Below, in pieces: positions 12,516-56,905 of a stretch of DNA of 64,000 bases; position 1 is the stretch's first letter; every line of letters starts with the position of its first letter. The translations under genes and the position numbers were made by a program. Under the pieces are notes generated by a model. The model worked only from the letters and a program-made list of their open reading frames with translations. It was not told the origin of the DNA and searched no databases. Source of the stretch: an uncultured Bacilli bacterium (lineage in GTDB: Bacteria > Bacillota_I > Bacilli_A > RF39 > UBA660); contig CAKPNA010000003.1 in the NCBI GenBank assembly GCA_934168275.1, positions 47,732 to 111,731 of the forward strand. The letters run 5' to 3'.

Positions 12516-12600
12516 TTAAATTGATCTTGACCGCAATCTTTATAATTAACCTTATATTGATTGCGTTTTTTACATATTAAAATAGTAAGAGGTGTTCGTA

Positions 12601-39330: not shown

Positions 39331-39418
39331 ATTAAACAAGAAAGCAATATAAAATAATATAATAGTTGATATAACCAAATTTATCACTTTTTCATAAATT
39401 ATTATGAGGAGTGATAAA

Positions 39419-39733
39419 ATGAATAATACTAATAAACTAACTGGCGTGGTCATTGATGCTGGGCATGGAGGTTCGGATAGCGGAGCTATTGGGGAAAATG
39501 CATATGAAAAAGATTATAATTTACTAATATCACAGTATATGTATAATAGACTTAAAGAATTAGGCGTTCCTGTTTACATTACTAGAGATGGGGATGAAAC
39601 CATAACGCCTGCTAATAGAACTAAGGAGATACTAGAGGCATTTGGTAATGATCCTAATGTGGTGGTTATATCTAATCACTTAAATGCCGGAGGAGGCAAT
39701 AATCATTGTGTAACAAATATGTATAACGATTAA
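39419..39733 (+). pseudogene. N-acetylmuramoyl-L-alanine amidase (Amidase_3), 5' fragment interrupted by the mobile element
   Basis: VVIDAGHGGSDSGAIG...YITRDGD...VVISNHLNAGG is the first half of an Amidase_3 domain. After about 39690 the ORF reads element-derived codons (NNHCVTNMYND*). ATG 39419 follows GAGGAG. Confidence 0.85.
39694..39714. repeat. Left terminal inverted repeat (P' arm of the presumed attP)
   Basis: AGGCAATAATCATTGTGTAAC. Its reverse complement matches 54526-54546 at 19 of 21 positions. Confidence 0.8.
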
Positions 39734-39753
39734 AGCCAAAAATATAGTAAGAA

Positions 39754-40104
39754 ATGGAGATTAGTTATAATATGAGTTACACAAAAGAAAAAGAATTAAT
39801 GGATGAAGAAAATATATCTGATAAAGAATTTCAAGAAAAGTATTTACCTTTCTATGATAATTTTGAAGAGTATATGATTAGATATGTGATACCAGATGCA
39901 GTGGCCTTTTATATAGCAAATAGTTATTCAAGAGGGTGTTTAGATGATAGTAAATTATATAATCATATCAATTCTGCAGTAGATATTTTTAACTGTAGAT
40001 GTAATATTGATGTAATACTTCCATCTATAGAAAAGATATTAAACATAAAATATAATCTAAAAATTACTGATAGAAATTCATTAAAGCTAGAAAAAAATTA
40101 TTAA
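39754..40104 (+). CDS. Hypothetical protein (first gene inside the element)
   Basis: 116 aa ORF followed by a strong terminator. No motif recognised. Confidence 0.5.
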   Translation: MEISYNMSYTKEKELMDEENISDKEFQEKYLPFYDNFEEYMIRYVIPDAVAFYIANSYSRGCLDDSKLYNHINSAVDIFNCRCNIDVILPSIEKILNIKYNLKITDRNSLKLEKNY

Positions 40105-40108
40105 ATTG

Positions 40109-40134
40109 AGCACTATCATGGTGATAGTGCTTTT
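40109..40134 (+). terminator. Rho-independent terminator
   Basis: agcactatca-tgg-tgatagtgct followed by TTT. Confidence 0.65.
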
Positions 40135-40182
40135 GTATGGTATAATAATTATATATTTATTTAGTTTAAAAGATTAGTTGAG

Positions 40183-43100
40183 GTGAGATGGGTGGATTAT
40201 ATTGAACAAGGAATTGATGTACTATTTGAAAATAAAATAAACTATCAAAAACTTGATAAAATGAGTGATGAAATTAAGAATAGCAAAATTAATAATATAG
40301 AAGAATTTTTTGAAAGAATAAAGAGTATAGATGGTATATCATTAGTAATTGGTAGTAATGGTATAGGAAAAACATATTTATTAGAAGAATTAAAAAAATA
40401 TTTTGAGTTGGATAAAATAGATGTTAATCTAATTAGATTTAGAGACTATGACAATTTAGATTCTATAAAAGGAGCAATTACCTCTACTTCAAAATATATT
40501 ATATTTGATGGCTTAGATGAGATAAATTCAAATGTTCAAAATAATGTTTTAGAATATGTATTATCTATAAAAAATAAAAATGTAATTGTTTCTAGTCGTA
40601 GAGATTTTGTACAAAAAAGAAATTTATTTGATGCAAAATATAATATTTATGAAATAAGACAATTGGAAGAGTATAGAATTGACAATATTTTAAAATCAAA
40701 TGGGTTGAATAAAGAAAATTACAAGAATATATATAATTTATTAAAAATACCAAGATTTTTAATCCATTTATTAAATGTTAAAGATATTGTAGAAGAAAAA
40801 AGTAATATTAATAAATTTGATTTGTTAGAAATGATTGTAAATAGACATTTTGATGTAGTAAATGAGAGAGCTGCGATAAAAATAGAAACCAATATTCATA
40901 AACAAATCTTACAATCATTAGCATTAGTTATGATGATGACTGGTAAGAGTAATTTAACAATGGAGGAATTTACAATTTTTCTCAGTAACATAAATCATCT
41001 CGATATTAAATCTTATATTTTAAATAAAGATATTATTGAAAGTTTTTTGAATAATCAAATTTTACTTAATTATGGTAATTTGATTGGATTTGAAAACAAA
41101 GAAATAATGGAGTTCTTGGCAGCTAAAGAGATATTTGAAAATGAGTTTTCTAATAAAAATTTATTCGACATAGTAACAATCAAAGATACTAATGAAATAA
41201 ATACTTTATGGTTTAATACAATATCATATTTAATATCTAAGTCCAAAATATATTATGATTTAGTTTTAAATTATGTATTTAGTAATTTGCATCTTCAAGA
41301 TAATTTGTTAGACTTATTATTAAGTATAGATTACAATTTTGATGCTAAGGATATTATCACTGAAAATATTGAAAAATTTATTTTTCAATACACAAAACTT
41401 TATCAATATATGCCTTTCTATGATAATACAGACAGTATTTCCAAAATATTAAATGTTGATAGAAAATTATGTTTTAAGAATTTAATAGAAATTTTAGTTA
41501 AACAAAAAATAGAAAAGGATTTAACAGATTTTGATATTGTTTTTATTAATAATACTTTATCTTGTATTAACCATTTATTAGAAAAATATTCATTTGGCAA
41601 AAAAGAAACGACAAAGTTAAAGAATTATTTGCTAAAGAATGAAAAATATTATATCCAAAGCAACAATTTTAAAGTTAGATATTTATATGTATGTTTAAAG
41701 ATTTTTGAAACAGCTGAAATTGATGATTTACTTGAACGTAACGATATTGGTAAAAGATTGTTATCTATATTTTTATATGATAATGTTCATTTGAATAATT
41801 TAACTAAAATTGATGAGCACTTAAATCATTATATATTAAATTGTAGGAATAAGTTCGATGATCACTTTATAATTAACGAAGATTTGATAGCTGAATTTAT
41901 TAATACTAATTATGATTTAAGCAGATTAAAAAATCTTATTAATAATATAAAAGATGATAATAATATTGCAAGTTTTATACATTTTTTAAATTCTAATAAT
42001 TCAAAAAAAATATGGAATAAGTTATCAAAAAAGAGCATTGTAGGTCTTCTATACAATAAAATAATAAAAAAATTAAGTGATGAAAATACAAAAAGTAATC
42101 AAGAGATAAGGGAAGAAATAATGTTTGATCGCCGAAAAGGCGATGCTTTAGGAAAAATAATAGCATTGTGTATGAAATATGATTATATAACTATTGATAG
42201 TTTAAATAATCAAAATTACACTTCTAATTATATTACACAATATATGAGAGAATTGATTATTAAGATGTTCATAATAAATACAAAAAGTATAAATAATTTA
42301 TATGATAAATTGGTTGATAAAAAATCTATATTTAATGTTTGGAGACTTGACTTAGATAATGAAATTAGAATAAAACATGAATCTCAAATTAAAAATCTTT
42401 TCCCATCAGAATTTTTAGAATATAAAAAAGTATTAGAAAAATACCAAGATAAAGAATATGTAAGAGTTGAAGAAGTTTTAAATAAAGTTAGTTCTGCTAA
42501 TAATATATATTATAAAATTGATCGAGTATATGATTTGATTAAGAATGATAGCCAATTTGGTATAGTTAATTCAAATACTATATTTAAGAATACTTTGAAA
42601 TCAATTTCAAAAGAAATTGAAAATCATATTTCAAAGATAGATATTAATAGGTTAATTATTAAAGCTACAAGTAATAAAACTTATACAATAAGCTATGACA
42701 TACAATTATATCCAAAAGCAATATTTGTATTATTAAAAATGGGCTGGGATATAAATAAATATAATGATGTTAATGTTATACTTTTAAATAACAATATAGA
42801 TAAAATTGAACCATCATATAATGATAATAATTATAAAAAGTTATTGAATTATGTTAGTGCAAAAGTATCAAAAGATTATGTTAAACTATACATGTATGAC
42901 ATAATGGAAAAGCTAAAAAAATACAATTCAAATGTTTTGTTTCAAACAATATTTAAATGGTTAGACTATATAAACTTTGATGAGTATCAGATAAATAGTA
43001 TTTTATCTTTTATACTTGATAATATTAATTTGTTGAATGAAAATGAAATAAAAAAACTGAAGAAGTTTAGAAAATACAAAATTTGTCAGGATATATTAAT

Positions 43101-44070
43101 TGAATTAGGATTTGAAAATGAGATAAAAGATAGAATTGATTATATCAAAAAAAATCTTGTTTTTGAAGGAGATTTAATGACTATAGAAGAGAATGGAAAC
43201 TTTGAATATTCTTCTGGAACATATATTAATTCTTTAGCAAAAATTGGTTATAAAAACAAAAAATATATTTTTGATTTATTAGAATATATGTTTAAAAAAT
43301 ATAATGAAGGTGACTATTATCATTTTTCTAAATATATTTTAAATATGGTAACAAAATATATTAATAATATTGATCAATCTAATATTAATGACATAATTGA
43401 TTATATTGTATTGAATGAAAAAAATAATAATAATAGATATTTATATGAAATTTGTAGTAATATTTCTTCACTAAAAAATGTTCAAAATAGAAATATAATC
43501 CAAATAATAAATCAATATAATTCTATTATAACTGATCAACATGTTAAGGTATATTCATATAATGATTTATTTAATATAGTAAAAGAAATATTACAAACTA
43601 ATATATTTGATGATATAATAAGAATCCAATTTTTTGAAATATTTAAGGATAAAAATACCAAAAAAATTAGACCATTGAGGGAAGAAATTTATCAATTCTT
43701 AATTGGTTATGAGTTAAGCAGAATTTTAAATATTAGAGGATTTTCTACTAAAGTAATATATGAATCTACAGCTCCTGATAAAAAAAGAAATGATATTCAA
43801 TTGGTGACAGAAGGATTTATTCAAGACATAGTTATCGAAACAAAACTTTCTAATAATAATGATATATTAAATGAAAAAAATATTAAAGCATATATAAAAA
43901 ATACTTTAGAAAAATACAAAGAAAGGTTTAATTCTCCAAGAATATTATTTGTAATAATTAATCAAAAATTAACAATTAAAACTTGTCAGCAAAAGATTGA
44001 TTGGATTAATAAAAATGGTATTCAGTTCATAGATACAGTACCAATATATTTAGAAAAATATTTTAAATAA
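40183..44070 (+). CDS. NACHT-like STAND P-loop NTPase with long helical region and C-terminal PD-(D/E)xK-like nuclease motif
   Basis: 1295 aa. Walker A VIGSNGIGKTYLL, Walker B YIIFDGLDEI, then VIVSSRR (NACHT-style sensor). C-terminus RNDIQLVTEGFIQDIVIETKL (D...ExK). The start is uncertain (GTG 40183 or 40192). Confidence 0.7.
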   Translation: MRWVDYIEQGIDVLFENKINYQKLDKMSDEIKNSKINNIEEFFERIKSIDGISLVIGSNGIGKTYLLEELKKYFELDKIDVNLIRFRDYDNLDSIKGAITSTSKYIIFDGLDEINSNVQNNVLEYVLSIKNKNVIVSSRRDFVQKRNLFDAKYNIYEIRQLEEYRIDNILKSNGLNKENYKNIYNLLKIPRFLIHLLNVKDIVEEKSNINKFDLLEMIVNRHFDVVNERAAIKIETNIHKQILQSLALVMMMTGKSNLTMEEFTIFLSNINHLDIKSYILNKDIIESFLNNQILLNYGNLIGFENKEIMEFLAAKEIFENEFSNKNLFDIVTIKDTNEINTLWFNTISYLISKSKIYYDLVLNYVFSNLHLQDNLLDLLLSIDYNFDAKDIITENIEKFIFQYTKLYQYMPFYDNTDSISKILNVDRKLCFKNLIEILVKQKIEKDLTDFDIVFINNTLSCINHLLEKYSFGKKETTKLKNYLLKNEKYYIQSNNFKVRYLYVCLKIFETAEIDDLLERNDIGKRLLSIFLYDNVHLNNLTKIDEHLNHYILNCRNKFDDHFIINEDLIAEFINTNYDLSRLKNLINNIKDDNNIASFIHFLNSNNSKKIWNKLSKKSIVGLLYNKIIKKLSDENTKSNQEIREEIMFDRRKGDALGKIIALCMKYDYITIDSLNNQNYTSNYITQYMRELIIKMFIINTKSINNLYDKLVDKKSIFNVWRLDLDNEIRIKHESQIKNLFPSEFLEYKKVLEKYQDKEYVRVEEVLNKVSSANNIYYKIDRVYDLIKNDSQFGIVNSNTIFKNTLKSISKEIENHISKIDINRLIIKATSNKTYTISYDIQLYPKAIFVLLKMGWDINKYNDVNVILLNNNIDKIEPSYNDNNYKKLLNYVSAKVSKDYVKLYMYDIMEKLKKYNSNVLFQTIFKWLDYINFDEYQINSILSFILDNINLLNENEIKKLKKFRKYKICQDILIELGFENEIKDRIDYIKKNLVFEGDLMTIEENGNFEYSSGTYINSLAKIGYKNKKYIFDLLEYMFKKYNEGDYYHFSKYILNMVTKYINNIDQSNINDIIDYIVLNEKNNNNRYLYEICSNISSLKNVQNRNIIQIINQYNSIITDQHVKVYSYNDLFNIVKEILQTNIFDDIIRIQFFEIFKDKNTKKIRPLREEIYQFLIGYELSRILNIRGFSTKVIYESTAPDKKRNDIQLVTEGFIQDIVIETKLSNNNDILNEKNIKAYIKNTLEKYKERFNSPRILFVIINQKLTIKTCQQKIDWINKNGIQFIDTVPIYLEKYFK

Positions 44071-44082
44071 AGATTTATTAAT

Positions 44083-44116
44083 GCACTAATTTTTTAAAAA
44101 ATTAGTGCTATTTTTT
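44083..44116 (+). terminator. Rho-independent terminator after the NACHT-like gene
   Basis: gcactaatttttt/aaaaaattagtgc perfect hairpin followed by T6. Confidence 0.75.
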
Positions 44117-44150
44117 GCTAAAAAACAGTAAAAAAATTATTAAAAAATTT

Positions 44151-44273
44151 ACCATCTTACCAGAGATAACTTACTAGTCTTGTACAATAAATCAAGCATG
44201 GTGTTGACACACCCGTTAATGCTTGTTAGGGAGCATCCCTAAAACCTATAAAAATAGTCTCTGACAGTTACTA
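44151..44273 (+). other. GC-rich structured non-coding patch (candidate ncRNA or cis element)
   Basis: No ORF of 60 aa or more on either strand in 44071-44339. Local stems aagcat(ggtg-ttgaca-cacc)...atgctt, taggga-gca-tcccta and cagaga...tctctg. Clearly more G+C than the surrounding DNA. Confidence 0.35.
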
Positions 44274-44339
44274 AAATTTTATTATTTTTATTGTGTAAAA
44301 TTGATTTACTCAAATATAATAAAATGATATAATATTGTT

Positions 44340-44942
44340 ATGAAAGTAAATGGTGATTCTATGACTAATGAAGATAAAATTAAACATTTTTTAGATACTA
44401 ATCATGGATACATATCTACATCAGATTTTTTAAAACTAAATATTAGTAAACCATTGATAAAAAAATATGTTGATAATGGTTTAATAAAAAAAGTTTCTCA
44501 TGGATTCTACATAAATAGTAACTTGTTAGTAGATGATGAATATGTTTTTCAAAAAAGATATCCTGATGCTATCTATTCATATAAGACAGCATTAAGTATG
44601 TTAGGTTTAATTAAAGAATTACCAAAAGAAATCGAAATAACGGTTAATAGTAAAAAAAGAGTTTTAAGTAATTATAAAGTACATTATGTAGCAGATAAAT
44701 ATTATGATATAGGAATTATTGAAATTAATAGTATGTTTAATAATCCAATTAAAACCTATAATGCTGAAAGATGCATTTGTGATATGTTAAAAAGTGATGA
44801 CTTTGATTTAGAATTGCAAAATAATATATTACATGATTATTTTAATAATAGTGATAAAGATATAGATAAGTTATTAGAGTATTCTAAAGTATTTAATATA
44901 TATGAAAAAGTTAGAACTTTAGTAGATTATGCAGTGAGATAG
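44340..44942 (+). CDS. AbiEi-like (type IV TA antitoxin family) wHTH domain protein
   Basis: 200 aa. N-terminal GYISTSDFLKLNISKPLIKKYVDNGLIKKVSHGFY resembles the AbiEi_4 N-terminal domain. The start may be ATG 44361. Confidence 0.65.
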   Translation: MKVNGDSMTNEDKIKHFLDTNHGYISTSDFLKLNISKPLIKKYVDNGLIKKVSHGFYINSNLLVDDEYVFQKRYPDAIYSYKTALSMLGLIKELPKEIEITVNSKKRVLSNYKVHYVADKYYDIGIIEINSMFNNPIKTYNAERCICDMLKSDDFDLELQNNILHDYFNNSDKDIDKLLEYSKVFNIYEKVRTLVDYAVR

Positions 44943-44954
44943 GAGGTTAATTAA

Positions 44955-45791
44955 ATGAGTGAAAAAGAATTGGATTCAAGTAACATTGAATATACAGAAG
45001 AAACTAAACCAGAAGGATATGTAAAACAACTAGAGTGGGATATGGCTATAGGTCTTCAAGAAGTAGATAATTTAAAGCCTTCTAAATATTTAGAAAAATT
45101 GTTAGAAGAAAATGTTAGTGGTAATTTAACTATTAAACAAGTAGAAGAAGAACTAAGAGAATATTACATTGAAAAAGATAAAAAACAAGAATTAAATCAT
45201 AATGAATTAGAATGTGATTTTGTATCAACAAGAATTGTTGAATTATTACAAATTGATAATTTTGAATTGTCTGTAGATTATTTAAAATACATTCATAAAT
45301 ATTTATTTCAAGATGTTTATGAATTTGCGGGTGAATTTAGAAATATAGATTTTTCTAAACATGAGAAAATACTTAATAATGATTCAGTTGCTTATGGTGA
45401 TTGTAAAACATTAAAAGAATCATTAGAATATGATATTTCTTTAGAAAAAGAAAAGAATTATATAGATATGAGTGTTGTAGAAGTAATAAATAATATTACC
45501 AAATTTTCATCTAGTATATGGCAAGTACATCCATTTAGAGAAGGTAATACAAGAACAACAGCATTATTTATAGAAAAATATCTAATTAGTTTAGGTTATG
45601 AAGTAGATAATACTTTATTTAAAGATAAGTCTGTTTATTTTAGAAATGCATTAGTAAGGAGTAATTATTTTAATAATTATTTAAATATTAAAGAAGATAG
45701 TAGTTATTTAGTTAAATTTTATGAAAATTTGTTGTTAGGTAAAAACAATAATTTACATTCACAGGATTTAATTGTTAAAGAATTGTTTTAA
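44955..45791 (+). CDS. Fic/DOC-family protein (putative AMPylase or related)
   Basis: 278 aa. Fic core [14 protein letters not shown] (HxFx[D/E]GNxRxxR-like). GGAGG RBS 13 nt after the upstream stop. Confidence 0.8.
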
Positions 45792-45808
45792 GAAATGAGG
45801 TAATAATT

Positions 45809-47683
45809 ATGGATTTTGATCAAATGAGTAAAGATGACTTGATTAATTATATAAAATCATTAAATGAAGAAAAATCAGGCAAGTTGGGACTAATATGGGA
45901 TAGAGAAAAAGTGCCAGAAGATATTGTTTTGGAATGCAACAAGAAAATTCCTGTATTAAAAAATATATCTGAAAAGAATATTATAACGTCTAACAATAAA
46001 TGTAATAATAATAACTTATTGATTGAAGGCGATAATTTTCATAGTTTAAGCGTTCTATCATATACACATAATGAAAGCATTGATGTTATATATATTGATC
46101 CTCCATATAATACAGGGAGTGAAGATTTTGTATATAATGATAAATATGTTAATTCAGAAGATGGATATAGACATAGTAAATGGTTGAATTTTATGGATAA
46201 AAGGCTTAAAATAGCAAGAAGACTATTAAAACAAGATGGTGTTATTTTTATATCTATTGATGATAATGAATATGCACAATTAAAATTATTATGTGATGAA
46301 ATTTTTGGCGAAAATAATTTGCTTTCTATACACCATATGCAAGTTAGGTATGATAATAAAAGTTTGAATGAAGATAATGATTGGCAACCAGTAATGGAAT
46401 ATGTTCTAATATATGCAAAAAGGAAAAATTTATTCAAAGCAAATAAGCACTGCGAAGAATATGATCTTTCAAAATTTCAATATAAGATTACTGAACTAAC
46501 TAAAGGTACAACTTTAAAAATAGGTAATAAAACAGTTACTATCTTTAAAGATGGTGAATGGAAGATAGAAAAAGGTAAAGGGAAAATCGGATTGTTAAAA
46601 GAAACTTGGGCATCAGGGAGCATAGTTAGACAAAGCGGCACTGCTGCAGAATTTTTGTCAAAATATTTGATTAAAAGAAAAGATCAAGATGGTTTAAATG
46701 TTTTATATAAAATTCATAATATGGGAGAAGATGGATTAGGATATAGATATGTAACTGGTCCAAAGAGACATGATGCCATTCGTGGAAAGTTTTATTCTGG
46801 TGTTCCTTTAGAACGAATAAAGGAAATTGAAAATAATGGTTTCTCAAAAAAAACAAGGCCTATTTCAAATTACTATGATTTTAGTGCTGATTTTGGAAAT
46901 ATACGAAATGAAGGTGGAATACCATTTAATAATGGCAAAAAACCAATTAAGATGTTAAAAGAGTTAATTAATTATCATCCAAATAAAAATGCATTAGTAT
47001 TGGACTTTTTTGCTGGATCAGGAAGTACTGGACATGCCGTATTAGAATTAAATAAAGAAGATGGTGGAGAAAGAAGGTTTATATTATGTACTAATAACGA
47101 AATTAGCTTAAAGGACGAAAAAGAATTTAAGAAAAAAAATAATATAAATGATGAAACTCTGATTGAATATAAGAAAAAAAATAATAAAAAATGGTTGAAA
47201 TTTATTGAAGAAAAGGGAATTTGTAATTCTATAACATATCCTAGAATTAATAATGTGATTAATGGATATAAGAACAAAAAAGGATTAGTTGGGAATTTAC
47301 TATATTTTAAAACAGAATTCGTTGAAGTTAACGGTTCAAAAGACCAATTATATTATGATTTAACTGAAAAATGCATTCCAATGTTGTGTATAAAAGAAAA
47401 TACTCATGTTTTAGTTAGAAAAGATAACGAATATTGTATATATTCTAATGAAGAAAAGACAAAATATACTTGTGTCTATTTTGATGCTTTTGGAAATAAT
47501 TATAATAAATTTATAAATGATATTGAAAATATTTATGAATTTAAGGCATTATATATATTTACTTTAGGAAATGAAATAAATCAGAATGAACTAGTCGATG
47601 TACACAATTATGAAGTGGAACCAATTCCATATAAAATTTTAGAGTTATATAATAAAATAATTGATTTAAGTAGGGAGATATAA
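45809..47683 (+). CDS. mod: Type III restriction-modification DNA methyltransferase (beta-class N6-adenine/N4-cytosine)
   Basis: 624 aa. Motif [12 protein letters not shown] precedes motif [14 protein letters not shown], with a variable region between them. Followed directly by the res helicase. Confidence 0.85.
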
Positions 47684-47685
47684 TT

Positions 47686-49986
47686 ATGAAAGAATTAAAA
47701 AGATATCAGGAGCAAGCAATAAAGCAGTTGATAACAGCCTCTAAAATGTTTTTTGAAACAGATAACAATGAAACTATTGTATTTCAATCACCAACGGGCA
47801 GTGGAAAAACATTTATGATGACTAATTATATTTCTGAAATTATTAGAGATACGCAGTTGAATTTATGCTTTTTATGGGTATCAATTGGAAACGGAAATTT
47901 ACATGTTCAAAGTTACAATAGTGTTAAGAAAAATATATCATCACTTGTTGATTGTAGTTTGTTAGAAGAAGACTTTTTTGGGAAAAGAAAAAAAATTAAC
48001 AAAAATGAAATAGTGTTTTTAAATTGGGAAAAGATAAGGCAAAAGGATGGTATAACAGGACAATATACAAATAATGTTATGAAGGATAAGGATGATATAA
48101 ATTTTATAGAAGTTCTTGAAAATACACGAAACAATGATACAAAAATAATATTAATTATAGATGAAAGTCACAAATCATCTAATACTATAAGAGCAAGAGA
48201 ACTTAGAGATGAGATAATAAAACCTTTCCTAACAATAGAGATGAGTGCTACTCCAGTACTTACTTCAGATATGCAAATGAAAGTTACAGTAGACCCAAAC
48301 AAAGTAATAGAAGAAGGAATGATAAAGAAAGAAATTATCATTAATAAAGATATATCATCAATATCTAATAATGATATATTCTCACAGAATTTAATTTTAG
48401 AAAGTGCATATCAAAAACGTTTATATTTGAAAAAAATGTATGAAAAACAAAAAGCTAATATAAATCCATTAGTATTAATACAATTACCAAATTCAGATGC
48501 TGGTGAAATTAAGAAAAAAGCAGTTTTAGATTTTTTGGAAAGCAAAAATATAAATATTGATAGTGGAAAAATCGGTATATGGTTGACAGAAGATAAGATG
48601 AATATTGAAAGTGAAGAATTAACTAAAAATGACAGTAAAGTAGAATTTTTATTATTTAAGCAAGCTGTTGATACTGGATGGGATTGTCCTAGAGCACAGA
48701 TACTTGTAAAATTTAGAGAGTCAAATAGCATTATATTTGAAATTCAAACGGTAGGAAGAATATTAAGAATGCCTGAGGCAAAGCATTACGATTGTGACGA
48801 TTTAAATATTGCATATGTTTATACAAATATTAAATCCATTGAGATAAAAAAAGAAGTTTATAATCCTAATATTATAAAATCAATTTGTTCTAAAAGAACT
48901 GAGAATTATGGCAATATTAAATTGAGGTCATATTATAAAAATAGAATTGATTTTGGTGATATAACTAGTGAATATACAATGTTTTTTGAGCGTGCTTTTT
49001 GTAGATTTTTCAAAATAGACTATAAGGATAATGAAATTCCAAATTACAAGGAATCATTAAAAAAACTAATACAAAATGGAATTAAAACAAATTATGATGA
49101 AATGGATACTATCTTAAATAGTATAGAACTGGAAACAAATAATATAGATTCTGGAATGGTAGTAAGGGAAGATAGCGTAGTATATATGAAATTATCACCA
49201 GATGATTTAGATATTAGATATAATAAAATTCTATTAAAGAATATAGGAAATTTTTCTCCTAGTAGATCTATCTCTAAATTAAAAACAGCTATATTATATG
49301 TATTTAGAAAATATTTAAATATGAAACCTTCAGATGGCGGAATAACTATTATTCAAAATTTTATTGTTAGAAATGAAGAAATATTTGAAAAGGTTTTGTC
49401 GTTGGCTTTGGATGAATATAAAAGTTTTCATGAAAAAGATATTGAATTAAAAAATCCCGGCAGATATAATGATGATTGGGAAATTTTAACTAGCAAAAAT
49501 TATAATCCTGAAACTAATGTTGAGGTAAAATCTAAATTATCAATTTATCAACCACTGTACTTGCCTTGTGATAATAATGGGAAGGTTGATGAACTAGAAC
49601 TAAAATTCATAGAATATTTAGAAGAAAATAATGAATTTATTAAATGGTTTTGGAAGAATGGTGACGAACATATGGAATCAAATTTTGGAATTAGGAAAGA
49701 AAATGGTTCTACTTTTCAACCAGATTTTATTATTTCATTTGTTGATGGAAGTATAGGAATATTTGATACAAAAGCAATTGGATTTAATGAAAATGATAAT
49801 ATAAGTAAATCTAATGCATTATATAAATATGTATCTGATGAAAGATTTAAAGGAAAGAACATAGTTGGAGGTTTAGTTGTGTATACATCACAAGGTTTTA
49901 GATATTTCAGTGAATCACAATACAAGAGTTATAATGAATCTCCAGAAAGTTGGATGGATTTTGATGACTTTTTTAAAAAAATCTGA
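47686..49986 (+). CDS. res: Type III restriction enzyme Res subunit (SF2 helicase plus C-terminal PD-DxK nuclease)
   Basis: 766 aa. Motif I FQSPTGSGKTFMM, motif II LIIDESHK, motif VI QTVGRILRM, C-terminal QPDFIISF...GIFDTKA. Starts 3 nt after the mod stop. Confidence 0.85.
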   Translation: MKELKRYQEQAIKQLITASKMFFETDNNETIVFQSPTGSGKTFMMTNYISEIIRDTQLNLCFLWVSIGNGNLHVQSYNSVKKNISSLVDCSLLEEDFFGKRKKINKNEIVFLNWEKIRQKDGITGQYTNNVMKDKDDINFIEVLENTRNNDTKIILIIDESHKSSNTIRARELRDEIIKPFLTIEMSATPVLTSDMQMKVTVDPNKVIEEGMIKKEIIINKDISSISNNDIFSQNLILESAYQKRLYLKKMYEKQKANINPLVLIQLPNSDAGEIKKKAVLDFLESKNINIDSGKIGIWLTEDKMNIESEELTKNDSKVEFLLFKQAVDTGWDCPRAQILVKFRESNSIIFEIQTVGRILRMPEAKHYDCDDLNIAYVYTNIKSIEIKKEVYNPNIIKSICSKRTENYGNIKLRSYYKNRIDFGDITSEYTMFFERAFCRFFKIDYKDNEIPNYKESLKKLIQNGIKTNYDEMDTILNSIELETNNIDSGMVVREDSVVYMKLSPDDLDIRYNKILLKNIGNFSPSRSISKLKTAILYVFRKYLNMKPSDGGITIIQNFIVRNEEIFEKVLSLALDEYKSFHEKDIELKNPGRYNDDWEILTSKNYNPETNVEVKSKLSIYQPLYLPCDNNGKVDELELKFIEYLEENNEFIKWFWKNGDEHMESNFGIRKENGSTFQPDFIISFVDGSIGIFDTKAIGFNENDNISKSNALYKYVSDERFKGKNIVGGLVVYTSQGFRYFSESQYKSYNESPESWMDFDDFFKKI

Positions 49987-50205
49987 TATAATTAAATTAG
50001 GGTACGAGGAGTGTGCTCAAAAAAGTCGACTTTATTAAAGGAAGTTTATGTAATGTTCTCAATAGAACTTAACAAGAATGAAGTGCCAAAATTAAAGGGA
50101 AGTACTAGTGTATTTCTAGAATTGCTGTACTATTCTTTGTTCAGTTCTTTTTCTTATGCTCTAAAAGACTGATAAATAATAGACTATTAAGGTAATCTTA
50201 TATCA

Positions 50206-50736
50206 ATGAATATGGAAAGAGATATTGAACCTTTTATTAAATTAGTTTTTCCAACAAGTTTATTGGGAGATAAGAATTTAACACCACTTGAAAGATTACT
50301 ATTAATTTACATTTTGTCACTTTGTAAGAAGTATGGATATTGCTGGGCTACTAATGAATTTTTTAGTAATAGTTTTAATGTTAGTAGGCAAACAATATCA
50401 AAGAGTATAAGTAGTTTATCTAATTATGGTTATATTGTTTTGATGTATGATAAGAAAGAGCAGAATAATTCTAAAAGAAAAATTATGATATCAGAGGTAT
50501 TCAAAAAAAGAATATCAGATATACAAGAAAATCTTAATACTAGTAATCAAGAAAACTTTAAACAATATAATAAAAATAATAGTATAAGTAAAAATATAGG
50601 TCCTGTTATAGAATATGATGATAAAGGTAATATCATATCTTGGAATGGTAAACCTACAACATCAGAACCTATGAGTGAAGAAGAAATTAAAGAATTAGAA
50701 ATGTTAATAAATGAAATAACAAAAGGAGATGAATAA
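50206..50736 (+). CDS. Winged-helix / HTH domain protein (replication-organiser or regulator-like)
   Basis: 176 aa. LTPLERLLLIYILSLCKKYGYCWATNEFFSNSFNVSRQTISKSISSLSNYGYIVL is an HTH pattern common in mobile-element regulators or Rep-organisers. Confidence 0.6.
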   Translation: MNMERDIEPFIKLVFPTSLLGDKNLTPLERLLLIYILSLCKKYGYCWATNEFFSNSFNVSRQTISKSISSLSNYGYIVLMYDKKEQNNSKRKIMISEVFKKRISDIQENLNTSNQENFKQYNKNNSISKNIGPVIEYDDKGNIISWNGKPTTSEPMSEEEIKELEMLINEITKGDE

Positions 50737-50777
50737 TTTATTGTTTAACAAAGTCATACACTATAAAGAGGTGACTT

Positions 50778-50870
50778 ATGTTTAATATAATAGAAACATT
50801 TAAAAAAGATTCTCCTGATTTAACCTTGTTGATAACTAATTATATAAAAAGAGTAATGGATAATGAGTAG
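50778..50870 (+). CDS. 30-codon micro-ORF with a strong RBS, upstream of the recombinase
   Basis: AAAGAGGTGA, 4-nt spacer, ATG 50778. MFNIIETFKKDSPDLTLLITNYIKRVMDNE*. Below the ORF-track cutoff. Confidence 0.3.
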   Translation: MFNIIETFKKDSPDLTLLITNYIKRVMDNE

Positions 50871-50946
50871 AACAATGGTGTTATATTGTTCTTTATGGTA
50901 CAATATAATTGGCTTTAATTTGTTATACAAGAAGAAAGGAGTATAA

Positions 50947-52536
50947 ATGTATAACATTAAGGTAAGAGAACCAGAGTTTTACAAAGCAGGAATATATATA
51001 AGATTATCTGAAGCTGATCAAGGGAAATCTTACGAATCCGAAAGTGAGAGTGTCCTTAATCAAAGAAATATACTAATGAAATTTGTTAAAGACAATGGGT
51101 TTATCTTTGTTGGAGAATATGTTGATGATGGATATTCTGGTACTGATTTTGATAGACCAGGATTTAATCTAATGATGGAAGATTTGAAAAAAGGACTCAT
51201 AAATCTTGTAATAGTTAAAGATTTATCAAGATTAGGAAGGGATCATATATTAACAGGTTATTATGTTGAAAGATATTTTCCTGAAAATAATATAAGATTT
51301 ATATCAATACAAGAAAGCTATGATAATTTTAAATTAAAATCAAGCAATGACTCCGTAATGTTTATATTTGCATGTAATGATTTTTATAGTAAACAAAATT
51401 CAGTTAAAATTAGAAATGTATTGGAATATAAAAAAAGAAAAGGGAAGTTTATTGGCAGTGCTCCAAGTTATGGATACATGAGAGATCCTAATGATAAAGG
51501 ACATTTAATACCACATCCTGAATATGCACCTGTGGTTAAAAAAATATTTGAAATGGCAAATAATGGTGTTGGTTTATCAGAAATAACCACTTATTTAAAT
51601 GATAATATGATTAAAACACCAAGTAGTCTAAAAAGGAAAAATCCTCGTGCAAGAAGTAAATACAATTCTATCTGGACAATATCTTCTGTTAAAAAAATTC
51701 TAAAAAATCAAATGTATGTTGGTGATATGGTTCAAAGCATTCAATGTAAACCTGATTACAAAACTAAGAAAAAATTTGCGGTTCCTAAAGAAAATTGGAT
51801 TGTTATTAAAGATACTCATGAACCTCTTGTTGATAGAATGGTTTTTGAAAAAATACAAGATAATGTTAAAAGAACCAATATTACTAATATTACTAAAAGA
51901 GAAAAAAGACTGTTTGAAAATTTGTTATATTGTAAAGAATGTGGTAATACATTAACTATTACTTATAGGAAGAATCATAATTATTGGACAATTAATTGTA
52001 ATAAATATTCAAGAGATCCTAAAAGACATTTATGCTATCCACATTTTATGCCTTATGATAAATTGGAAGAAGCGTTATTAAAAGTTATTAGGAAAACTTG
52101 TAAAAAATATTTGGCTGCAATTAATGTACCTGAGCTTGCAAATGAACTAAAAAATAAAAAGAAAAATACTCTTAAAGTAGAAGTAAGAATATTTGATTTG
52201 GAAAGAAAAGAAAAAGATCTTCTTGAAAAATTAGATATGTTATATGAAGATAAGTTTAGAGGATTAGTATCAGATGAGATGTATAAAAGAATTGCTAATG
52301 AGACTGAAAAAATGTTAACTAAATCAAGACTTGAAATCAAAAAATTAAAAGTTGATGAAGAAGAAATGCAAAATAAATCGGATGATATAAAACAGTATGA
52401 AGATAAAATAAGAACATTAATAGATTTAAAAAATCCGACTAGAGAGCTAATGAAGGCTATCATTGATAAAATAGTAATAGACAAAGATAAAAATATAGAA
52501 ATTATTTACAAATTTAGTATACTAAATAATATTTAA
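50947..52536 (+). CDS. Large serine recombinase (resolvase/invertase catalytic domain + recombinase domain + zinc ribbon + coiled coil)
   Basis: 529 aa. AGIYIRLSEADQ (nucleophile Ser), YVDDGYSGTDFDRPGF, VIVKDLSRLGRD. Zn ribbon CKECGN...NC. C-terminal coiled coil. AAAGGAG RBS. Confidence 0.92.
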   Translation: MYNIKVREPEFYKAGIYIRLSEADQGKSYESESESVLNQRNILMKFVKDNGFIFVGEYVDDGYSGTDFDRPGFNLMMEDLKKGLINLVIVKDLSRLGRDHILTGYYVERYFPENNIRFISIQESYDNFKLKSSNDSVMFIFACNDFYSKQNSVKIRNVLEYKKRKGKFIGSAPSYGYMRDPNDKGHLIPHPEYAPVVKKIFEMANNGVGLSEITTYLNDNMIKTPSSLKRKNPRARSKYNSIWTISSVKKILKNQMYVGDMVQSIQCKPDYKTKKKFAVPKENWIVIKDTHEPLVDRMVFEKIQDNVKRTNITNITKREKRLFENLLYCKECGNTLTITYRKNHNYWTINCNKYSRDPKRHLCYPHFMPYDKLEEALLKVIRKTCKKYLAAINVPELANELKNKKKNTLKVEVRIFDLERKEKDLLEKLDMLYEDKFRGLVSDEMYKRIANETEKMLTKSRLEIKKLKVDEEEMQNKSDDIKQYEDKIRTLIDLKNPTRELMKAIIDKIVIDKDKNIEIIYKFSILNNI

Positions 52537-52609
52537 AGACTTTGTTCCAAAAGGAACAAAGTAAACATAGAAATAGATAAACTACTTATAGGAATAATAG
52601 AGGTATATA

Positions 52610-53230
52610 ATGAGAGCAGAAACACGATTAATAATTAATAATTATTATGATGAAGATGATAAGAAATTATTTTGTAAGTTTGCTAAAATAATAAAAAATG
52701 ATTATAAAATAAAAGATACACATAGACAAATATGGGAATATGATCAATCACTAGGAGGATTTGGAGGATATGCTGCTCCACTAAATCCAACTCTTAATCC
52801 ATTTAATTCTTTAGGGGATTTTAGAAATGTTTTTAGGAGTCTTCAATATGCTAGAAGTGATATGTTTTATTGTACAAGACCTAGACATATTATCATTGAT
52901 ACAGCACTTCATGTTGAAACGTTGGTTAAACTAGTTTTGTCAAAAAATAAATTACTTAAGTTTATTTATAATAGAAGAGAATTTGGAAAAAATATAGAGC
53001 AATTGTATAAAGAAAATATTATTAATAATGATTTATATGAAAGACTTAACAATTTAAGAAAAATTCTGAATTATGCAAAACATGATACTGATCCAGATAG
53101 GGATAATACATTTGATTATGAGGATGCAATAGTTTTTTATTTTGAAACAAGAAAAGTAGGTAATAAACTTCTTAAAAGTTTAAACTATCCAACTTATGAT
53201 AAAACTTTTGAAATAAATGAAGATATTTAG
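52610..53230 (+). CDS. Hypothetical protein with a DUF4145/HEPN-like R-x3-N-x3-H motif
   Basis: 206 aa. NLRKILNYAKHD aligns with the (I/L)RxxGNxxxH pattern I recall for DUF4145-type domains. AGAGG RBS. Confidence 0.45.
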   Translation: MRAETRLIINNYYDEDDKKLFCKFAKIIKNDYKIKDTHRQIWEYDQSLGGFGGYAAPLNPTLNPFNSLGDFRNVFRSLQYARSDMFYCTRPRHIIIDTALHVETLVKLVLSKNKLLKFIYNRREFGKNIEQLYKENIINNDLYERLNNLRKILNYAKHDTDPDRDNTFDYEDAIVFYFETRKVGNKLLKSLNYPTYDKTFEINEDI

Positions 53231-53248
53231 ATAATTGGAGGAAGAATT

Positions 53249-54523
53249 ATGGCAGTATGCTTTTTTGATGATAATTATGATGAATCATACGAATGTGACT
53301 ATACAGTTAAGAAATATAATATTGAAGTAATTGTAAATTATGAAATTGATAAGGAAATTGAACCAGATAATAATGGTGTAAAAAGTTTTGGCTTAAATAC
53401 AAAATTTAAAGATAGAGATATTTTAATAATTGATTATAAAAATAAGAAAAACGTTTTATTAAAAGACGCTTATTATTGTGGTCATACCAATGTGTGGGGA
53501 ACCCCAGATGGCGGTTCAAAAGCAAAATTTAGTTCTAGATATTATTTTTGTGATAAAAATTATGATAAATTGTGCAACTTAAAGAAGACCCCTAAAGTAA
53601 GTAAAATAAGAATGTATAGTGGTTTAATTAATGAACTTATAGGACATCCAAGCTTATTTGAAGAAGATGTTGGTGATGAGTTTGTTATTAAGCTTAAAAG
53701 GAATACTATTAGAAAAAATATTATTTTAGGCATAAATAATATAAAAGAAATAATCTTATCTGATGATTGGAGTCATATACATAGTTATAAAAATAATGAT
53801 ATTTCGATTAAATTAACTGGTTATTTAGAAATAGTTTTAAATAAGAGAATTAATTACTATGATATATATGATTATATAAAAGAAACTATGGTATATCTAC
53901 AATTAATAAGACCTAATAAATTAAAAATAGATAAAATTACAGTTTTTATTGATGATGCATATTATGAACTTAGTATTCCAATTAATGAATTAGAATATAG
54001 CGATAAATATATTTCCAATAGTGTATCTACTGACTTTATAGAGTTTTTAACTAAGTGTTATAATTTAATACCATATAGAAAGTCTAAAAGTGAGATAAGA
54101 AATATACCATATATTATTTTTGAAACATCAAGAAATTTGGAAGATAATTTTTTAATGTTTTATAAATTTATAGAATGTTATTATAAAAAGCAAAATATAA
54201 CTACCAATTTTATTTCTTATAGTATCATTAATAATTATAAAAAAAGTTCTACTATGAGGAACGAAGAAATAGAAAATTTATCACAAGAAATAATATGTTT
54301 AAGAAATCATTATGTGCATTCCGGTTATTTTTTAAAAAATGACTCTTTAAAAATTAATTTTAAAAAAGTTGGAAGAAAATCCAATCCAAAAAATTATACA
54401 GTTAACAAAATTGATGTAGACTGGATTTATGAAAAAACGAAAATATTATATGAGATAGTTATCGATATTATTTTTAAAAATATGTTAAATTTTGAACAAT
54501 ATAAATTTGAAAAAAAATTTTAA
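53249..54523 (+). CDS. ApeA/Abi-like HEPN-domain protein (candidate RNase effector)
   Basis: 424 aa. C-terminal region ICLRNHYVHSGYF carries the R-N-x3-H (Rx4-6H) HEPN signature. GGAGG RBS. The stop is 3 nt before the right inverted repeat. Confidence 0.55.
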   Translation: MAVCFFDDNYDESYECDYTVKKYNIEVIVNYEIDKEIEPDNNGVKSFGLNTKFKDRDILIIDYKNKKNVLLKDAYYCGHTNVWGTPDGGSKAKFSSRYYFCDKNYDKLCNLKKTPKVSKIRMYSGLINELIGHPSLFEEDVGDEFVIKLKRNTIRKNIILGINNIKEIILSDDWSHIHSYKNNDISIKLTGYLEIVLNKRINYYDIYDYIKETMVYLQLIRPNKLKIDKITVFIDDAYYELSIPINELEYSDKYISNSVSTDFIEFLTKCYNLIPYRKSKSEIRNIPYIIFETSRNLEDNFLMFYKFIECYYKKQNITTNFISYSIINNYKKSSTMRNEEIENLSQEIICLRNHYVHSGYFLKNDSLKINFKKVGRKSNPKNYTVNKIDVDWIYEKTKILYEIVIDIIFKNMLNFEQYKFEKKF

Positions 54524-54525
54524 GC

Positions 54526-54546
54526 GTTACACTTTGATTATTGCCT
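54526..54546. repeat. Right terminal inverted repeat (P arm of the presumed attP)
   Basis: GTTACACTTTGATTATTGCCT, complementary to 39694-39714 at 19 of 21 positions. Confidence 0.8.
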
Positions 54547-55623
54547 GGTGGTACCGGTGCCGAAGTAATCTACGCCCTAAGAAACAACTCCACATTAGCC
54601 AACAAAATCCTAAACAACATCGGCGACCTAGGCCAAACCAAACGAAAAGTTTACCAACGCCGCCTACCGTCAGATAACAGCAAAGACTACTATTTCATTC
54701 ACCGCAACACCGGAAATACCGAACCATTAATTGTTGAATACGGCTTCATAGATAATCCCAATGACCTACAATTCCTAAAAAATAACTATCAACAACTAGC
54801 CGAAGCAACCATCAAAGCCATCCTAGACTACAAAGGTATTCCATACACTGCACCAAACGAAGTAGCCACAAACACTTACAAAGTATCCAAAGGTGATACC
54901 CTATACTCGATAGCCCAAAAATTCAACACAACTGTTGATACATTAAAAAGACTCAACAACCTAACAAACAACACATTAACCATCGGCCAAGTATTACAAG
55001 TACCAACATCAATAAGTATGGAAGAAGGTACTCAACTATACACCGTTAAACGAGGCGACACCTTATACACAATAGCCAATAATTTCAATACCACAGTAGA
55101 CAACATAAAATCTCTAAATGATCTTACAAGTAATACTCTAAGCATCGGCCAAATCTTAATAGTGCCAACCGGAACAACTACTTCTAATACCTATCGAGTA
55201 AGGCCAGGAGATAGCCTCTACAGTATTGCCAAACAATTTAACACCACCGTTGATGAACTAAAACGAGCTAACAACTTAACCAACAATTTTATAGCAGTCA
55301 ATCAAGAATTAAAAATACCATCTAAAATAGAAGAAGAAACAAAACTATATACTGTAAAATCAGGCGACACCCTATATTCCATAGCTAAAGAAAACAATAC
55401 CACTGTTCAAGATATAAAAAATGCTAACAACTTAACATCAGACATATTAACAATTGGTACAAAATTAATAATACCAACTCCAGAAACCACTTATGTTGTA
55501 AAACCCGGTGATAACTTATATCAAATAGCAAGAAGATATGGCACTACAGTAGATAATATTAAAGCCTTAAATAATCTAACAACTAATAACCTAAGTGTTG
55601 GCCAAATACTAGTTCTAAGATAA
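54541..55623 (+). pseudogene. N-acetylmuramoyl-L-alanine amidase, 3' fragment: second half of Amidase_3 plus five LysM repeats
   Basis: Begins (L)PGGTGAEVIYALRNN...IVEYGFIDNPND (Amidase_3 C-terminal half). Then 5 LysM units (Y.V..GD.LY.IA..FNTTV..L...NNL). No credible native start. Markedly higher GC than the adjacent element. Confidence 0.85.
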
Positions 55624-55858: not shown

Positions 55859-56905
55859 ATGAAGCAGTGGCTTAAAGGCATACTAATTTTTATAACTTAC
55901 TATATAATTTACATATTTTTAATTGAAAAAATAGGTTCAAGTACATTAACTCAAGAAAAAATAACAGAGTTAAGCATTAGCTTTAGTATATTTTCATTAA
56001 TAATTCACATTGTTACAGCACGTTTAATAATTCAAAAAGAAAATAAAGAAATTATTAGACTAAGTACAAAAGTAAAAAAATTAATCGATTTAAATAGCAC
56101 ATATAATTTTAAAAAGTTATTAAAAAGAGAACGTACTATTATTGAAAGGGAATATTCTAGAAAAAGTTTAGAAAGAGTTAACCCTAATAGTATTATTAAA
56201 TATCGTATTGAAAACAATGTAGACTTACTCAGAACAGACGTAGAAAATGCTTTATATAATCTTAGCATACTAAATAAATACAATGATGATATTGATAAAT
56301 TATTCAATTATGAATCTACTAATGAAAGCAAATATTCTGACAAAAAATATAAAAAGATAGAAACACGAGTATTCAATAACTTAACTCACAAAGAAAATGA
56401 ATTTTTAATTAATATAAAATTGGAAGTGTATTATCGAAGCCCAAAGGGCAAAGTATATGAACGTAAATTCTATAAAATTTATTTTGATGCAATTGCTAAT
56501 ATATATAAGGCATGGTTAAACGGAAATAAGTATGAGGAAACAATGAAGCAAGAAAGAAAAATAATGAATGATGAAATTAGATATAACGTTTTAAAAAGAG
56601 ATAATTACACTTGTCAAATATGTGGGGCTACGGCAAGCGATGGAGCTAAATTACATATTGATCATATTATACCAATATCAAAAGGTGGCAAGACAGTAAT
56701 GAGTAATCTCCAAACATTATGTGAAAGGTGCAATATTGGAAAAAGTAATAAAACAGAAGAAGACTTCAAAAATGACATGATTTGTCCAATATGTGGATCA
56801 AAATTAGTTGAAAGAAAAGGTCAATATGGAAAATTTATTGGCTGTAGTAGTTATCCAAAATGCTATTACAAAAGAGAAATGAAACAAATAGTTGATGAAA
56901 AATAA
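55859..56905 (+). CDS. Membrane-anchored HNH endonuclease with C-terminal topoisomerase-type C4 zinc finger
   Basis: 348 aa. Two N-terminal TM segments. HNH CQICGA...HIDHIIPISKGG...NLQTLCERCNIGKSN. Zn finger CPICGSKL...GCSSYPKC. Confidence 0.75.
   Translation: MKQWLKGILIFITYYIIYIFLIEKIGSSTLTQEKITELSISFSIFSLIIHIVTARLIIQKENKEIIRLSTKVKKLIDLNSTYNFKKLLKRERTIIEREYSRKSLERVNPNSIIKYRIENNVDLLRTDVENALYNLSILNKYNDDIDKLFNYESTNESKYSDKKYKKIETRVFNNLTHKENEFLINIKLEVYYRSPKGKVYERKFYKIYFDAIANIYKAWLNGNKYEETMKQERKIMNDEIRYNVLKRDNYTCQICGATASDGAKLHIDHIIPISKGGKTVMSNLQTLCERCNIGKSNKTEEDFKNDMICPICGSKLVERKGQYGKFIGCSSYPKCYYKREMKQIVDEK

Follow-up and report, generated by a model that had tools for sequence, protein, structure and literature searches.

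Gene-intervening elements that are cut from mother-cell genes have so far been found in a handful of cultured Bacillus and Clostridium strains, and the targets of such elements in the literature consulted are sigK, spsM, spoVFB, spoVR, gerE, and yabG, with no amidase among them. Here, we analyzed a stretch of 64,000 nucleotides from an uncultured Bacilli bacterium of the RF39 lineage (GenBank assembly GCA_934168275.1, contig CAKPNA010000003.1, positions 47,732 to 111,731 of the forward strand), referred to as the window and numbered from its first letter. In it, an Amidase_3-LysM gene is cut in two at 39691/54547 by a 14,855-bp element (39694-54548) that encodes a large serine recombinase (LSR). 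Judged from its sequence, the interval is a non-phage integrative element driven by this LSR. We consider it probable that it is a skin- or gin-like intervening element, still horizontally mobile, whose excision would be timed to the mother cell. The principle of such elements is known; what is new is the target, the host range, the defense cargo, and the ongoing mobility between species.

Three features of described intervening elements recur at this locus, namely an insertion within the coding region of a gene with a sigma-K-type motif (an assignment at the level of the motif), a serine recombinase of its own, and an excision that would restore an orthologue-like open reading frame (ORF). 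The skin element in sigK, with the recombinase SpoIVCA in B. subtilis and CD1231 together with CD1234 under sigma-E and SpoIIID in C. difficile, is likewise an LSR intervening element in a mother-cell gene (PMC5025042). CD1234 is a small directionality factor of 72 amino acids, and its expression under sigma-E and SpoIIID confines excision to the mother cell (PMC5025042). We propose that both elements share a two-step logic, in which an early activation of the recombination module in the mother cell would precede the use of the rebuilt gene; the window element carries a sigma-E-like promoter before a small ORF. However, skin is a vertically inherited prophage remnant in an essential sporulation regulatory gene, whereas the window element is mobile, non-phage, and located in the gene of an effector enzyme.

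The gin element in gerE of Bacillus cereus ATCC 10987 (GirC and GirX; PMC5595907) is likewise not a prophage and lies in a late mother-cell coding region. Like the window element, it pairs an LSR with a tiny ORF that has no motif and probably encodes the accessory factor, in gin the 42-amino-acid directionality factor GirX, and its precise excision rebuilds the gene (PMC5595907). The target of gin is a transcription factor, whereas here it is an amidase, in uncultured gut Bacilli with reduced genomes, with defense cargo, a distribution over at least 80 species, and clear horizontal transfer, and with a predicted excision and a putative role of the 30-amino-acid ORF. The SPbeta prophage in spsM (SprA/SprB), in which the LSR is constitutive and directionality is supplied on cue, has likewise kept its activity as a mobile element while interrupting a late mother-cell gene (PMC4191935, PMC5499854). 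SPbeta is a complete phage of 134 kb, whereas the window element has no virion genes.

Two further groups of elements share parts of this design. Like the Tn4451/Tn4453 transposons, the window element is a small non-conjugative Firmicutes element; its LSR has a TnpX-like catalytic domain, and tnpV is a core gene in 16 of 24 complete relatives. TnpX is 707 amino acids long, whereas the window LSR has 529; furthermore, the window element selects its target with high specificity, has GG as its crossover dinucleotide, and has lost tnpV, and neither Mob/TnpZ nor resistance genes were detected. The transposons combine a TnpX-type LSR with TnpV, TnpY, TnpZ (Mob), and an oriT, and they have low target specificity. 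We did not retain membership in this group, as the architecture differs, only the catalytic domain is TnpX-like, no ORF of the window has a Mob or relaxase domain, and ~90% of insertions lie at one codon. SCC enters rlmH at its 3' end and leaves the gene intact; the window element, unlike SCC, splits the catalytic domain of its target. Staphylococcal SCC-type LSR cassettes otherwise resemble it in having no transfer genes of their own, a replication-initiator-like gene, swappable defenses, and one conserved chromosomal site (PMC11470126).

The split amidase gene and its crossover site

The original prediction of an amidase gene split by a serine recombinase element holds in its outline. The two gene pieces, the pentamers GGAGG (39689-93) and GGTGG (54547-51), and the 21-nucleotide inverted repeats (39694-39714 and 54526-54546) are all present. 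Complementarity extends to 19 of the 21 repeat positions, which at fixed positions has a chance of ~1e-8 by our own estimate, with a per-base match probability of ~0.30. The interval, which had been noted to be AT-richer than the amidase 3' half, has a GC content of 19-27% against 29-31% in the flanking 1-kb windows. The gene pieces and recombination sites are the following.

39419..39693, + strand: 5' piece of the amidase gene, comprising codons 1-91 and the crossover GG; match to Amidase_3 profile positions 1-85, E 7.9e-18
54547..55623 (ORF 54541-55623), + strand: amidase 3' piece; Amidase_3 positions 85-173, E 5.5e-9, then five LysM repeats, E 7.6e-85
39671..39714, + strand: attL, with the host B arm, GG 39692-93, and the element P' arm 39694-39714 (AGGCAATAATCATTGTGTAAC)
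54526..54569, + strand: attR, with the element P arm 54526-54546 (GTTACACTTTGATTATTGCCT), GG 54547-48, and the host B' arm
Predicted attB (rebuilt): ...CACTTAAATGCCGGAGGTGGTACCGGTGCC...
Predicted attP (circle junction): ...CTTTGATTATTGCCTGGAGGCAATAATCATTG...

The true start of the amidase ORF 39404-39733 is the ATG at 39419. In the integrated state, the 5' piece runs on into the element and reaches a stop codon at 39731-33. The split leaves the N-terminal zinc-ligand region of the Amidase_3 domain on one piece and its C-terminal part on the other, and we infer that neither piece alone can be active.

Six GG x GG pairings were tested in silico, all of which are in frame. The ten intact orthologues that were retrieved all carry NHLNAGGG[T/D/E]GAE, with three glycines, and in ~60 other species codon 91 is the last one of the host sequence, with GG and the element arm following in that order. 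Because intact orthologues read NAGGG and the junctions in other species place GG after codon 91, we assign the crossover to GG 39692-93 paired with GG 54547-48. This pairing turns the predicted attP into a perfect arm-GG-arm arrangement (GTTACACTTTGATTATTGCCT-GG-AGGCAATAATCATTGTGTAAC) with a 21-nucleotide arm on each side, and it places the insertion between codons 91 and 93 (NAG/GG), in the middle of the Amidase_3 domain. In silico joining gives an ORF of 449 amino acids that reads ...NAGGGTGAEV..., the motif of the intact orthologues. The in-frame repair of a single amidase gene had thus been correctly foreseen, while its original register, a deletion of 14,858 bp giving ~448 amino acids with NAGG, was dropped on the evidence of orthologues and family in favor of 14,855 bp and NAGGG. 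Uninterrupted orthologues, which had been expected in relatives with the ending NAGGTGAEV, exist by the thousands in the protein database, and the ten that were read have NAGGG(T/D/E)GAEV instead. By this reconstruction, the element was inserted by attP x attB recombination at the central GG, and reversal of the reaction in silico yields the intact ORF.

The proposal that both fragments come from one gene and not from different paralogues is borne out by their similar match to the same intact orthologue (P0001), with 75% identity for the 5' piece and 76% for the 3' piece. An assembly chimera, in which halves from different genomes were joined through a shared element, would find some footing in the 99% identity of element backbones in different co-occurring species and in the strong difference in codon usage between the halves. 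More specifically, at third codon positions the 3' half has 46% C (over its first 100 codons) and 1% G, while the 5' half has 9% C and the other genes of the window 5-17%. The C excess begins exactly at the attR crossover and decays over ~1.1 kb to background by the stop codon, and the changes relative to orthologues are directional (T>C, G>A, A>C, G>C). This gradient is the extreme among 72 homologous C-halves. Such a chimera is nevertheless barely credible. The two halves diverge to the same degree from a single orthologue, and the exact split products of 104 and 360 amino acids each recur in the species of the window on at least 22 independent contigs from different samples, some of them long, which reproduce the gradient together with a conserved protein. 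One contig of 119.5 kb carries both products at the spacing of the window, and the flanking genes are the same on those contigs. No uninterrupted amidase allele of this species was found in a collection of 5.8 billion proteins, the best intact relative being 75% identical, and the element looks fixed in the species.

Promoters and the recombination module

The start of the interrupted gene is preceded by a conserved promoter motif.

39374..39401, + strand: sigma-K-type amidase promoter, with ACC at 39374-76 and CATAAATTA at 39393-39401, then a GGAG ribosome-binding site and the ATG at 39419

In the sigma-K consensus, the -35 element is AC, while the -10 element is common to sigma-K and sigma-E (PMC3789822). 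The pattern AC-N16/17-CATAnnnTA has only two occurrences on the + strand of the window. The motif CATAnnnT[AT] lies 8-32 nucleotides before the start in 80 of 85 distinct upstream regions of orthologous amidases, versus 3.6% of 808 other ORF starts in the same DNA (binomial p ~1e-108), and these 80 regions have C at -17 in 71 cases and A at -18 in 46. Because the motif matches the sigma-K consensus, the target is presumably a late mother-cell, sigma-K-dependent amidase of the CwlC type. In B. subtilis, the sigma-K-controlled enzymes CwlC and CwlH lyse the mother cell, and two amidases of C. difficile are sigma-K dependent and candidates for the role of mother-cell lysin (PMC3789822).

The split gene also appears to be maintained. 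At the junctions, 58 of 64 C-halves are full length, and the amidase protein of the window is conserved despite massive synonymous change. The ratio of nonsynonymous to synonymous polymorphism (pN/pS) in split genes is 0.10-0.12, a value from two usable pairs only and of correspondingly weak support. These observations support the view that the split gene is still constrained and may be in use.

The genes and signals of the recombination module lie at both ends of the element.

39720..39737, + strand: A box (TGTATAACGATTAAAGCC), overlapping the stop of the truncated amidase ORF and following the P' arm at the left end
39772..40104 (alternative ATG 39754), + strand: core gene c2, 110 amino acids, an element-specific orphan
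50755..50870, + strand: promoter-like box CATACACTA (50755-63), ribosome-binding site, and 30-amino-acid ORF (50778-50870; MFNIIETFKKDSPDLTLLITNYIKRVMDNE)
50896..50955, + strand: recombinase leader, with an extended -10-like TGgTACAAT (50896-50904), B box GGCTTTAATTTGTTATACAA (50911-50930), ribosome-binding site, and start ATGTATAAC (50947-55)
50947..52536, + strand: LSR, 529 amino acids, with Resolvase, Recombinase, and Zn_ribbon_recom domains

The LSR, whose presence had been predicted, has its nearest solved structure in the catalytic domain of TnpX (2mhc, E 3e-24) and 5424 database relatives at E<=1e-30. In 47 distinct sequences of the family, its start is preceded by the same order of signals, consisting of a CATA box, a ribosome-binding site with the 30-amino-acid ORF, TGnTAnAAT, a B box of 19-20 nucleotides, and the ribosome-binding site and start of the LSR. 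The box upstream of the small ORF reads CATA(A/C)A.T(T/A), with A, T, and A/T at -19 to -17, and is sigma-E-like. The ORF itself is kept just 5' of the LSR in all of these sequences with conservative changes in the peptide, and we regard it as a candidate small directionality factor. Its precedents are CD1234 (PMC5025042) and GirX (PMC5595907), small factors of this kind that sigma-E controls. The start codon of the LSR is embedded in (A/T)TGTATAAC across the family.

The second small gene, c2, is represented by 67 database clusters with neither a Pfam domain nor a name. Its structural model (pLDDT 81.7) gave winged-helix-like matches that are non-significant, and an identity with a known protein was discarded for want of a family, a name, or a significant structural neighbor. 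It is a candidate accessory or directionality factor. Its N-terminus (MSYTKEK) resembles that of TnpV in relatives (MNISYTK...), as if a deletion had fused both genes; tnpV has been lost in the clade of the window.

In our preferred reading, the element would stay integrated in the germ line. In the terminally differentiated mother cell, the recombination module would be switched on through the sigma-E-like promoter before the operon of the 30-amino-acid ORF and the LSR, and the amidase promoter may contribute through transcripts that run on into the first genes of the element. The 30-amino-acid peptide, c2, or TnpV would supply directionality, the element would excise, and the amidase would be rebuilt in time for its expression by sigma-K. 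The circle released by excision would also be the form needed to reach new hosts.

The A and B boxes at the two ends of the element suggest a further layer. The A box is kept at the left end of nearly all family members, and the whole B box is complementary to its 18 nucleotides, such that one box is inverted between the left end and the recombinase leader. Of all partners on the + strand of the window, 50909-50932 forms the strongest duplex with the A box, with -20.1 kcal/mol where the mean is -3.0 (standard deviation 1.8), a difference of ~9 standard deviations. Duplex energies range from -17.6 to -24.3 kcal/mol over 25 variants, and in 24 distinct variants the duplex of 17-18 bp has 96.8% of its cells paired, with six positions varying by G.U wobble. 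The formal pair count found no compensatory double changes, and shuffles score equally well. The 3' end of the B box also pairs with the LSR start region in a hairpin of -13.1 kcal/mol (z -2.6). Pairing of the two boxes as RNA is put forward here as a hypothesis, short of a demonstration. Equally open is a role of the A box as a SpoIIID-type DNA site. Its core, TATAACAAT in most relatives, fits the C. difficile SpoIIID box KRTAACARK (PMC5025042), and the core in the window, TATAACGAT, is one position off.

If the boxes do pair, excision might be timed by the interrupted gene itself, with read-through of the transcript from its sigma-K-type promoter activating the recombinase. The amidase transcript would enter the element, co-express TnpV and c2 as possible directionality factors, and carry the A box, whose pairing with the B box would open the hairpin that buries the LSR start codon, an anti-antisense activation like that of DsrA on rpoS. 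The production of LSR and directionality factor would then be limited to the place and time at which the host attempts expression of the interrupted gene. A second trace of this process could be the C-rich gradient at attR, if the untranslated 3' fragment has been selected for Rho-type silencing or damaged by repeated cleavage. A scan detected no terminator that would stop transcription from the amidase promoter ahead of the first genes of the element, and sigma-70-type promoters around attL are not above chance. We regard such timing by the amidase transcript as rather improbable.

Family, mobility, and the case for plain insertion

To place the element, we scanned one genome per GTDB species, which gave 114 stretches encoding a relative of the LSR, of which 80 species-level loci were kept. 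No description of this element family was found in the searchable literature. All 80 loci come from metagenome-assembled genomes of uncultured gut 'Bacilli / Mollicutes / Tenericutes / Erysipelotrichaceae', among them CAG:582, CAG:762, CAG:433, CAG:710, 'Mycoplasma sp. CAG:472', and a closed chromosome of 1.31 Mb (OZ006981). The amidase 3' half begins at query residue 1 directly after the P arm in ~58 of the 80, and 28 loci additionally show the 5' half, with its end at codon 91. Counted across all loci, the amidase accounts for 62 of 70 right junctions and 109 of 118 left junctions, and ~90% of junctions fall at the same codon; those outside the gene are secondary sites.

The termini of these elements agree with the arms proposed for attP in the original prediction. 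Imperfect inverted arms of 21 nucleotides surround GG, and empty sites read B-GG-B'. In two other species, the flanks of empty and occupied alleles are 97-99% identical, and the sequences diverge at the GG. The arms co-vary between clades (AGGCAATAATCA..., TGGCGATAGTCA..., TGGTGATGGTCA...) and stay palindromic around GG; this is what is predicted for the site of a dimeric recombinase and is far beyond chance.

The secondary sites include right junctions in L023, L043, L045, L060, L066, L076, and L080 and left junctions in L096, L128, L132, L145, L147, L186, and L201. Some of their host arms resemble the B arm of the amidase, while those of L060 and L043 resemble its reverse complement, and they hint at how the recombinase may read half-sites. 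In CAG:433-like genomes (L067:1817-1860 and 11509-11560; L146; L202), the element lies outside the amidase and beside a 45-nucleotide relic right end, with a chromosomal P-GG-P' junction that mimics attP and a right junction P-GG-TATAGATG....

A second, different LSR family (541 amino acids, with its own HTH_36-like gene; L039:866-3300, also L058, L070, L078, L089, L135, and L163) ends ~35 nucleotides before the GHGG codons (~codon 15) of the same amidase. In such genomes, the amidase is in three pieces with two independent elements.

The element moves horizontally between species, because the identity of the LSR does not track that of the host amidase (Spearman 0.05 over 62 loci). LSR pairs that are at least 97% identical sit in host amidases of 45-67% identity, repeat contigs of a single element excepted, and for LSRs of 99% identity the host amidase halves are only 45-57% identical.

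This mobility bears directly on whether the split is regulated. A selfish element may have inactivated the amidase by plain insertion, with the conserved NAGGG stretch as a reliable attB, a gene that is dispensable or backed up, and an excision that is sporadic, serves transfer alone, and is non-developmental. Rampant horizontal transfer, the coexistence of occupied and empty alleles within species, and the use of secondary sites all suit such an element, as do the paralogous amidases of some hosts (L067, L076) and the failure to find an excision product in assembled contigs. The second LSR family, which uses another conserved motif (GHGG) of the same gene, fits a picture of conserved motifs as landing pads. 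Plain insertion, however, leaves unexplained the conserved CATA-type, mother-cell-like -10 box of the recombinase operon and the convergence of two LSR families on a gene with a near-universal sigma-K-type promoter. Nor does it account for mostly intact halves with a pN/pS of ~0.1, or for a 3' half that is conserved after heavy synonymous turnover in the species of the window. We consider it a less likely explanation, if a serious one.

Several observations weigh against mother-cell-timed excision. Six of the 64 C-halves are truncated, indicating that the gene decays in some hosts, a point that also suits plain insertion. The assignments to sigma factors are motif matches only, and the -35 region of the promoter of the 30-amino-acid ORF is AT-rich within an AT-rich genome. 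None of the 30-amino-acid ORF, c2, and TnpV resembles a known directionality factor, and none was identified; TnpX-type recombinases, the closest to our LSR by catalytic domain, are known to excise and insert without one. High mobility between species is unlike skin and equally expected of an ordinary element that uses a conserved coding motif as attB. The excision junction that the original prediction called for did not appear, as a strict attP pattern had no match in viral or metagenome contigs. A looser left-end pattern gave 120 loci, two of which have P-GG-P' junctions (L146, L202); both were rejected as circles, being chromosomal with the same arrangement as Clostridium sp. CAG:433 (L067), beside the relic right end. 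Finally, the organism of the window is a putative spore former. Proteins of the window that pass the SpoVD and SpoVE model cut-offs speak for a link to sporulation, as does the prediction of spore formers in the host orders, which are predicted to mix spore formers and non-spore formers (PMC10868615).

The choice between a regulated switch and plain insertion, which the original prediction had left open, is not settled by these data. The evidence leans toward a sporulation-linked switch because of the sigma-K-type promoter on the target and the sigma-E-like box on the recombinase operon.

Defense cargo, genomic context, and significance

The interval holds ten forward genes. Between and beyond the parts of the recombination module lie the following.

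40183..44070, + strand: P-loop / STAND-like ATPase of 1295 amino acids (cargo); weak matches to NACHT (E 0.0027) and mad8 (E 1.9e-4) that cover the N-terminal P-loop only, from which its putative function is taken
44340-44942, + strand: AbiEi-like gene (cargo); PADLOC AbiEi, E 9.7e-55
44955-45791, + strand: Fic-domain gene (cargo); Pfam Fic, E 3.2e-12
45809-47683 (Mod) and 47686-49986 (Res), + strand: type III restriction-modification system (cargo); PADLOC MTase_III, E 2.2e-72, and REase_III, E 7.4e-17; Pfam N6_N4_Mtase and ResIII
50206..50736, + strand: core gene c1, HTH_36 / DnaD_N-like; Pfam HTH_36, E 1.2e-10
52610..54523, + strand: right-end cargo of 206 amino acids (weak DUF4145) and 424 amino acids; no significant family in Pfam, defense, and PHROG scans

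The AbiEi/Fic region (44340..45791) also gives a match to PDC-S72 (E 5.2e-80). The right-end pair of 206 and 424 amino acids recurs in two relatives (L007 and L064). c1 resembles a replication initiator, with matches to PHROG replication-initiation families at E down to 2.8e-14. Among 24 complete elements, the core of the family consists of the left-end box, TnpV (16 of 24; PF14198, E 1.7e-36 in relatives, absent from the window element), c2 (18 of 24), the HTH_36 protein (20 of 24), the 30-amino-acid ORF, and the LSR (all 24). The cargo of relatives includes type I restriction-modification, an OLD-family ATPase-UvrD helicase pair (Gabija-like), methylases, and Bro-N proteins, and it differs even among relatives with 90-99% identical LSRs. 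With recognized anti-phage cargo that varies between related elements, the element can be counted, on the evidence of its genes, as a mobile defense island.

The Bro-N and Rep/DnaD-like proteins of the family, together with the match of the LSR to a PHROG integrase family, could point to a defective prophage or phage satellite, a skin-like remnant whose excision would be induced by phage or by the SOS response. This origin is very improbable, as neither the window element nor the 24 complete relatives have capsid, tail, terminase, portal, or lysis genes, and the smallest complete element measures 4.2 kb (L065). No phage record has an LSR of more than 60% identity, and a single viral contig carries a relative of 58%. 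Pfam and PHROG scans also found no conjugation, Mob, or relaxase domains and no virion genes in any ORF of the window.

The surroundings of the amidase are chromosomal rather than phage, because housekeeping genes are encoded in the window, including phosphoketolase, an AddAB-like pair, LigA, and HisS, along with proteins that pass the SpoVD, MraY, and SpoVE cut-offs. A phage endolysin had been considered for the amidase and was discarded, as the flank had no counterpart among phage records in a distant DNA search and PHROG scans show housekeeping neighbors. The window has ~26% GC, and nearly all genes lie on the + strand. Directly 3' of the amidase, 55859-56905 encodes a protein of 348 amino acids with an HNH endonuclease and a topoisomerase-type C4 zinc ribbon, which occupies the same position on the other contigs of the species. 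Isolated tRNA genes, His-GTG (12440-12515) and Met-CAT (26112-26188), lie between protein-coding genes, and an Rfam scan of the window returned two tRNAs and nothing else. Two XRE-type helix-turn-helix genes are found near the tRNAs, at 12592-13320 and at 26927-27670, and the second of them is a fusion with a CyaB-like class IV adenylate cyclase domain.

If our preferred reading of a mother-cell-timed intervening element is correct, the locus would add to the known elements a target class, a lytic enzyme of the CwlC type, and a host range, the uncultured, genome-reduced gut Bacilli whose ability to sporulate is debated. It would also add an intervening element that still hops between species as a vehicle for anti-phage defense, a concrete case of defense-island mobility in bacteria that lack conjugative elements. 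The family offers dozens of natural LSR/attP/attB variants with co-varying specificity, and the conserved sigma-K-type promoter may serve as a separate marker, readable from the genome, of whether these lineages can sporulate. With excision confined to the mother cell, the element would never leave the germ line and the host would lose nothing, which would account for the convergence of two unrelated recombinase families on one gene.

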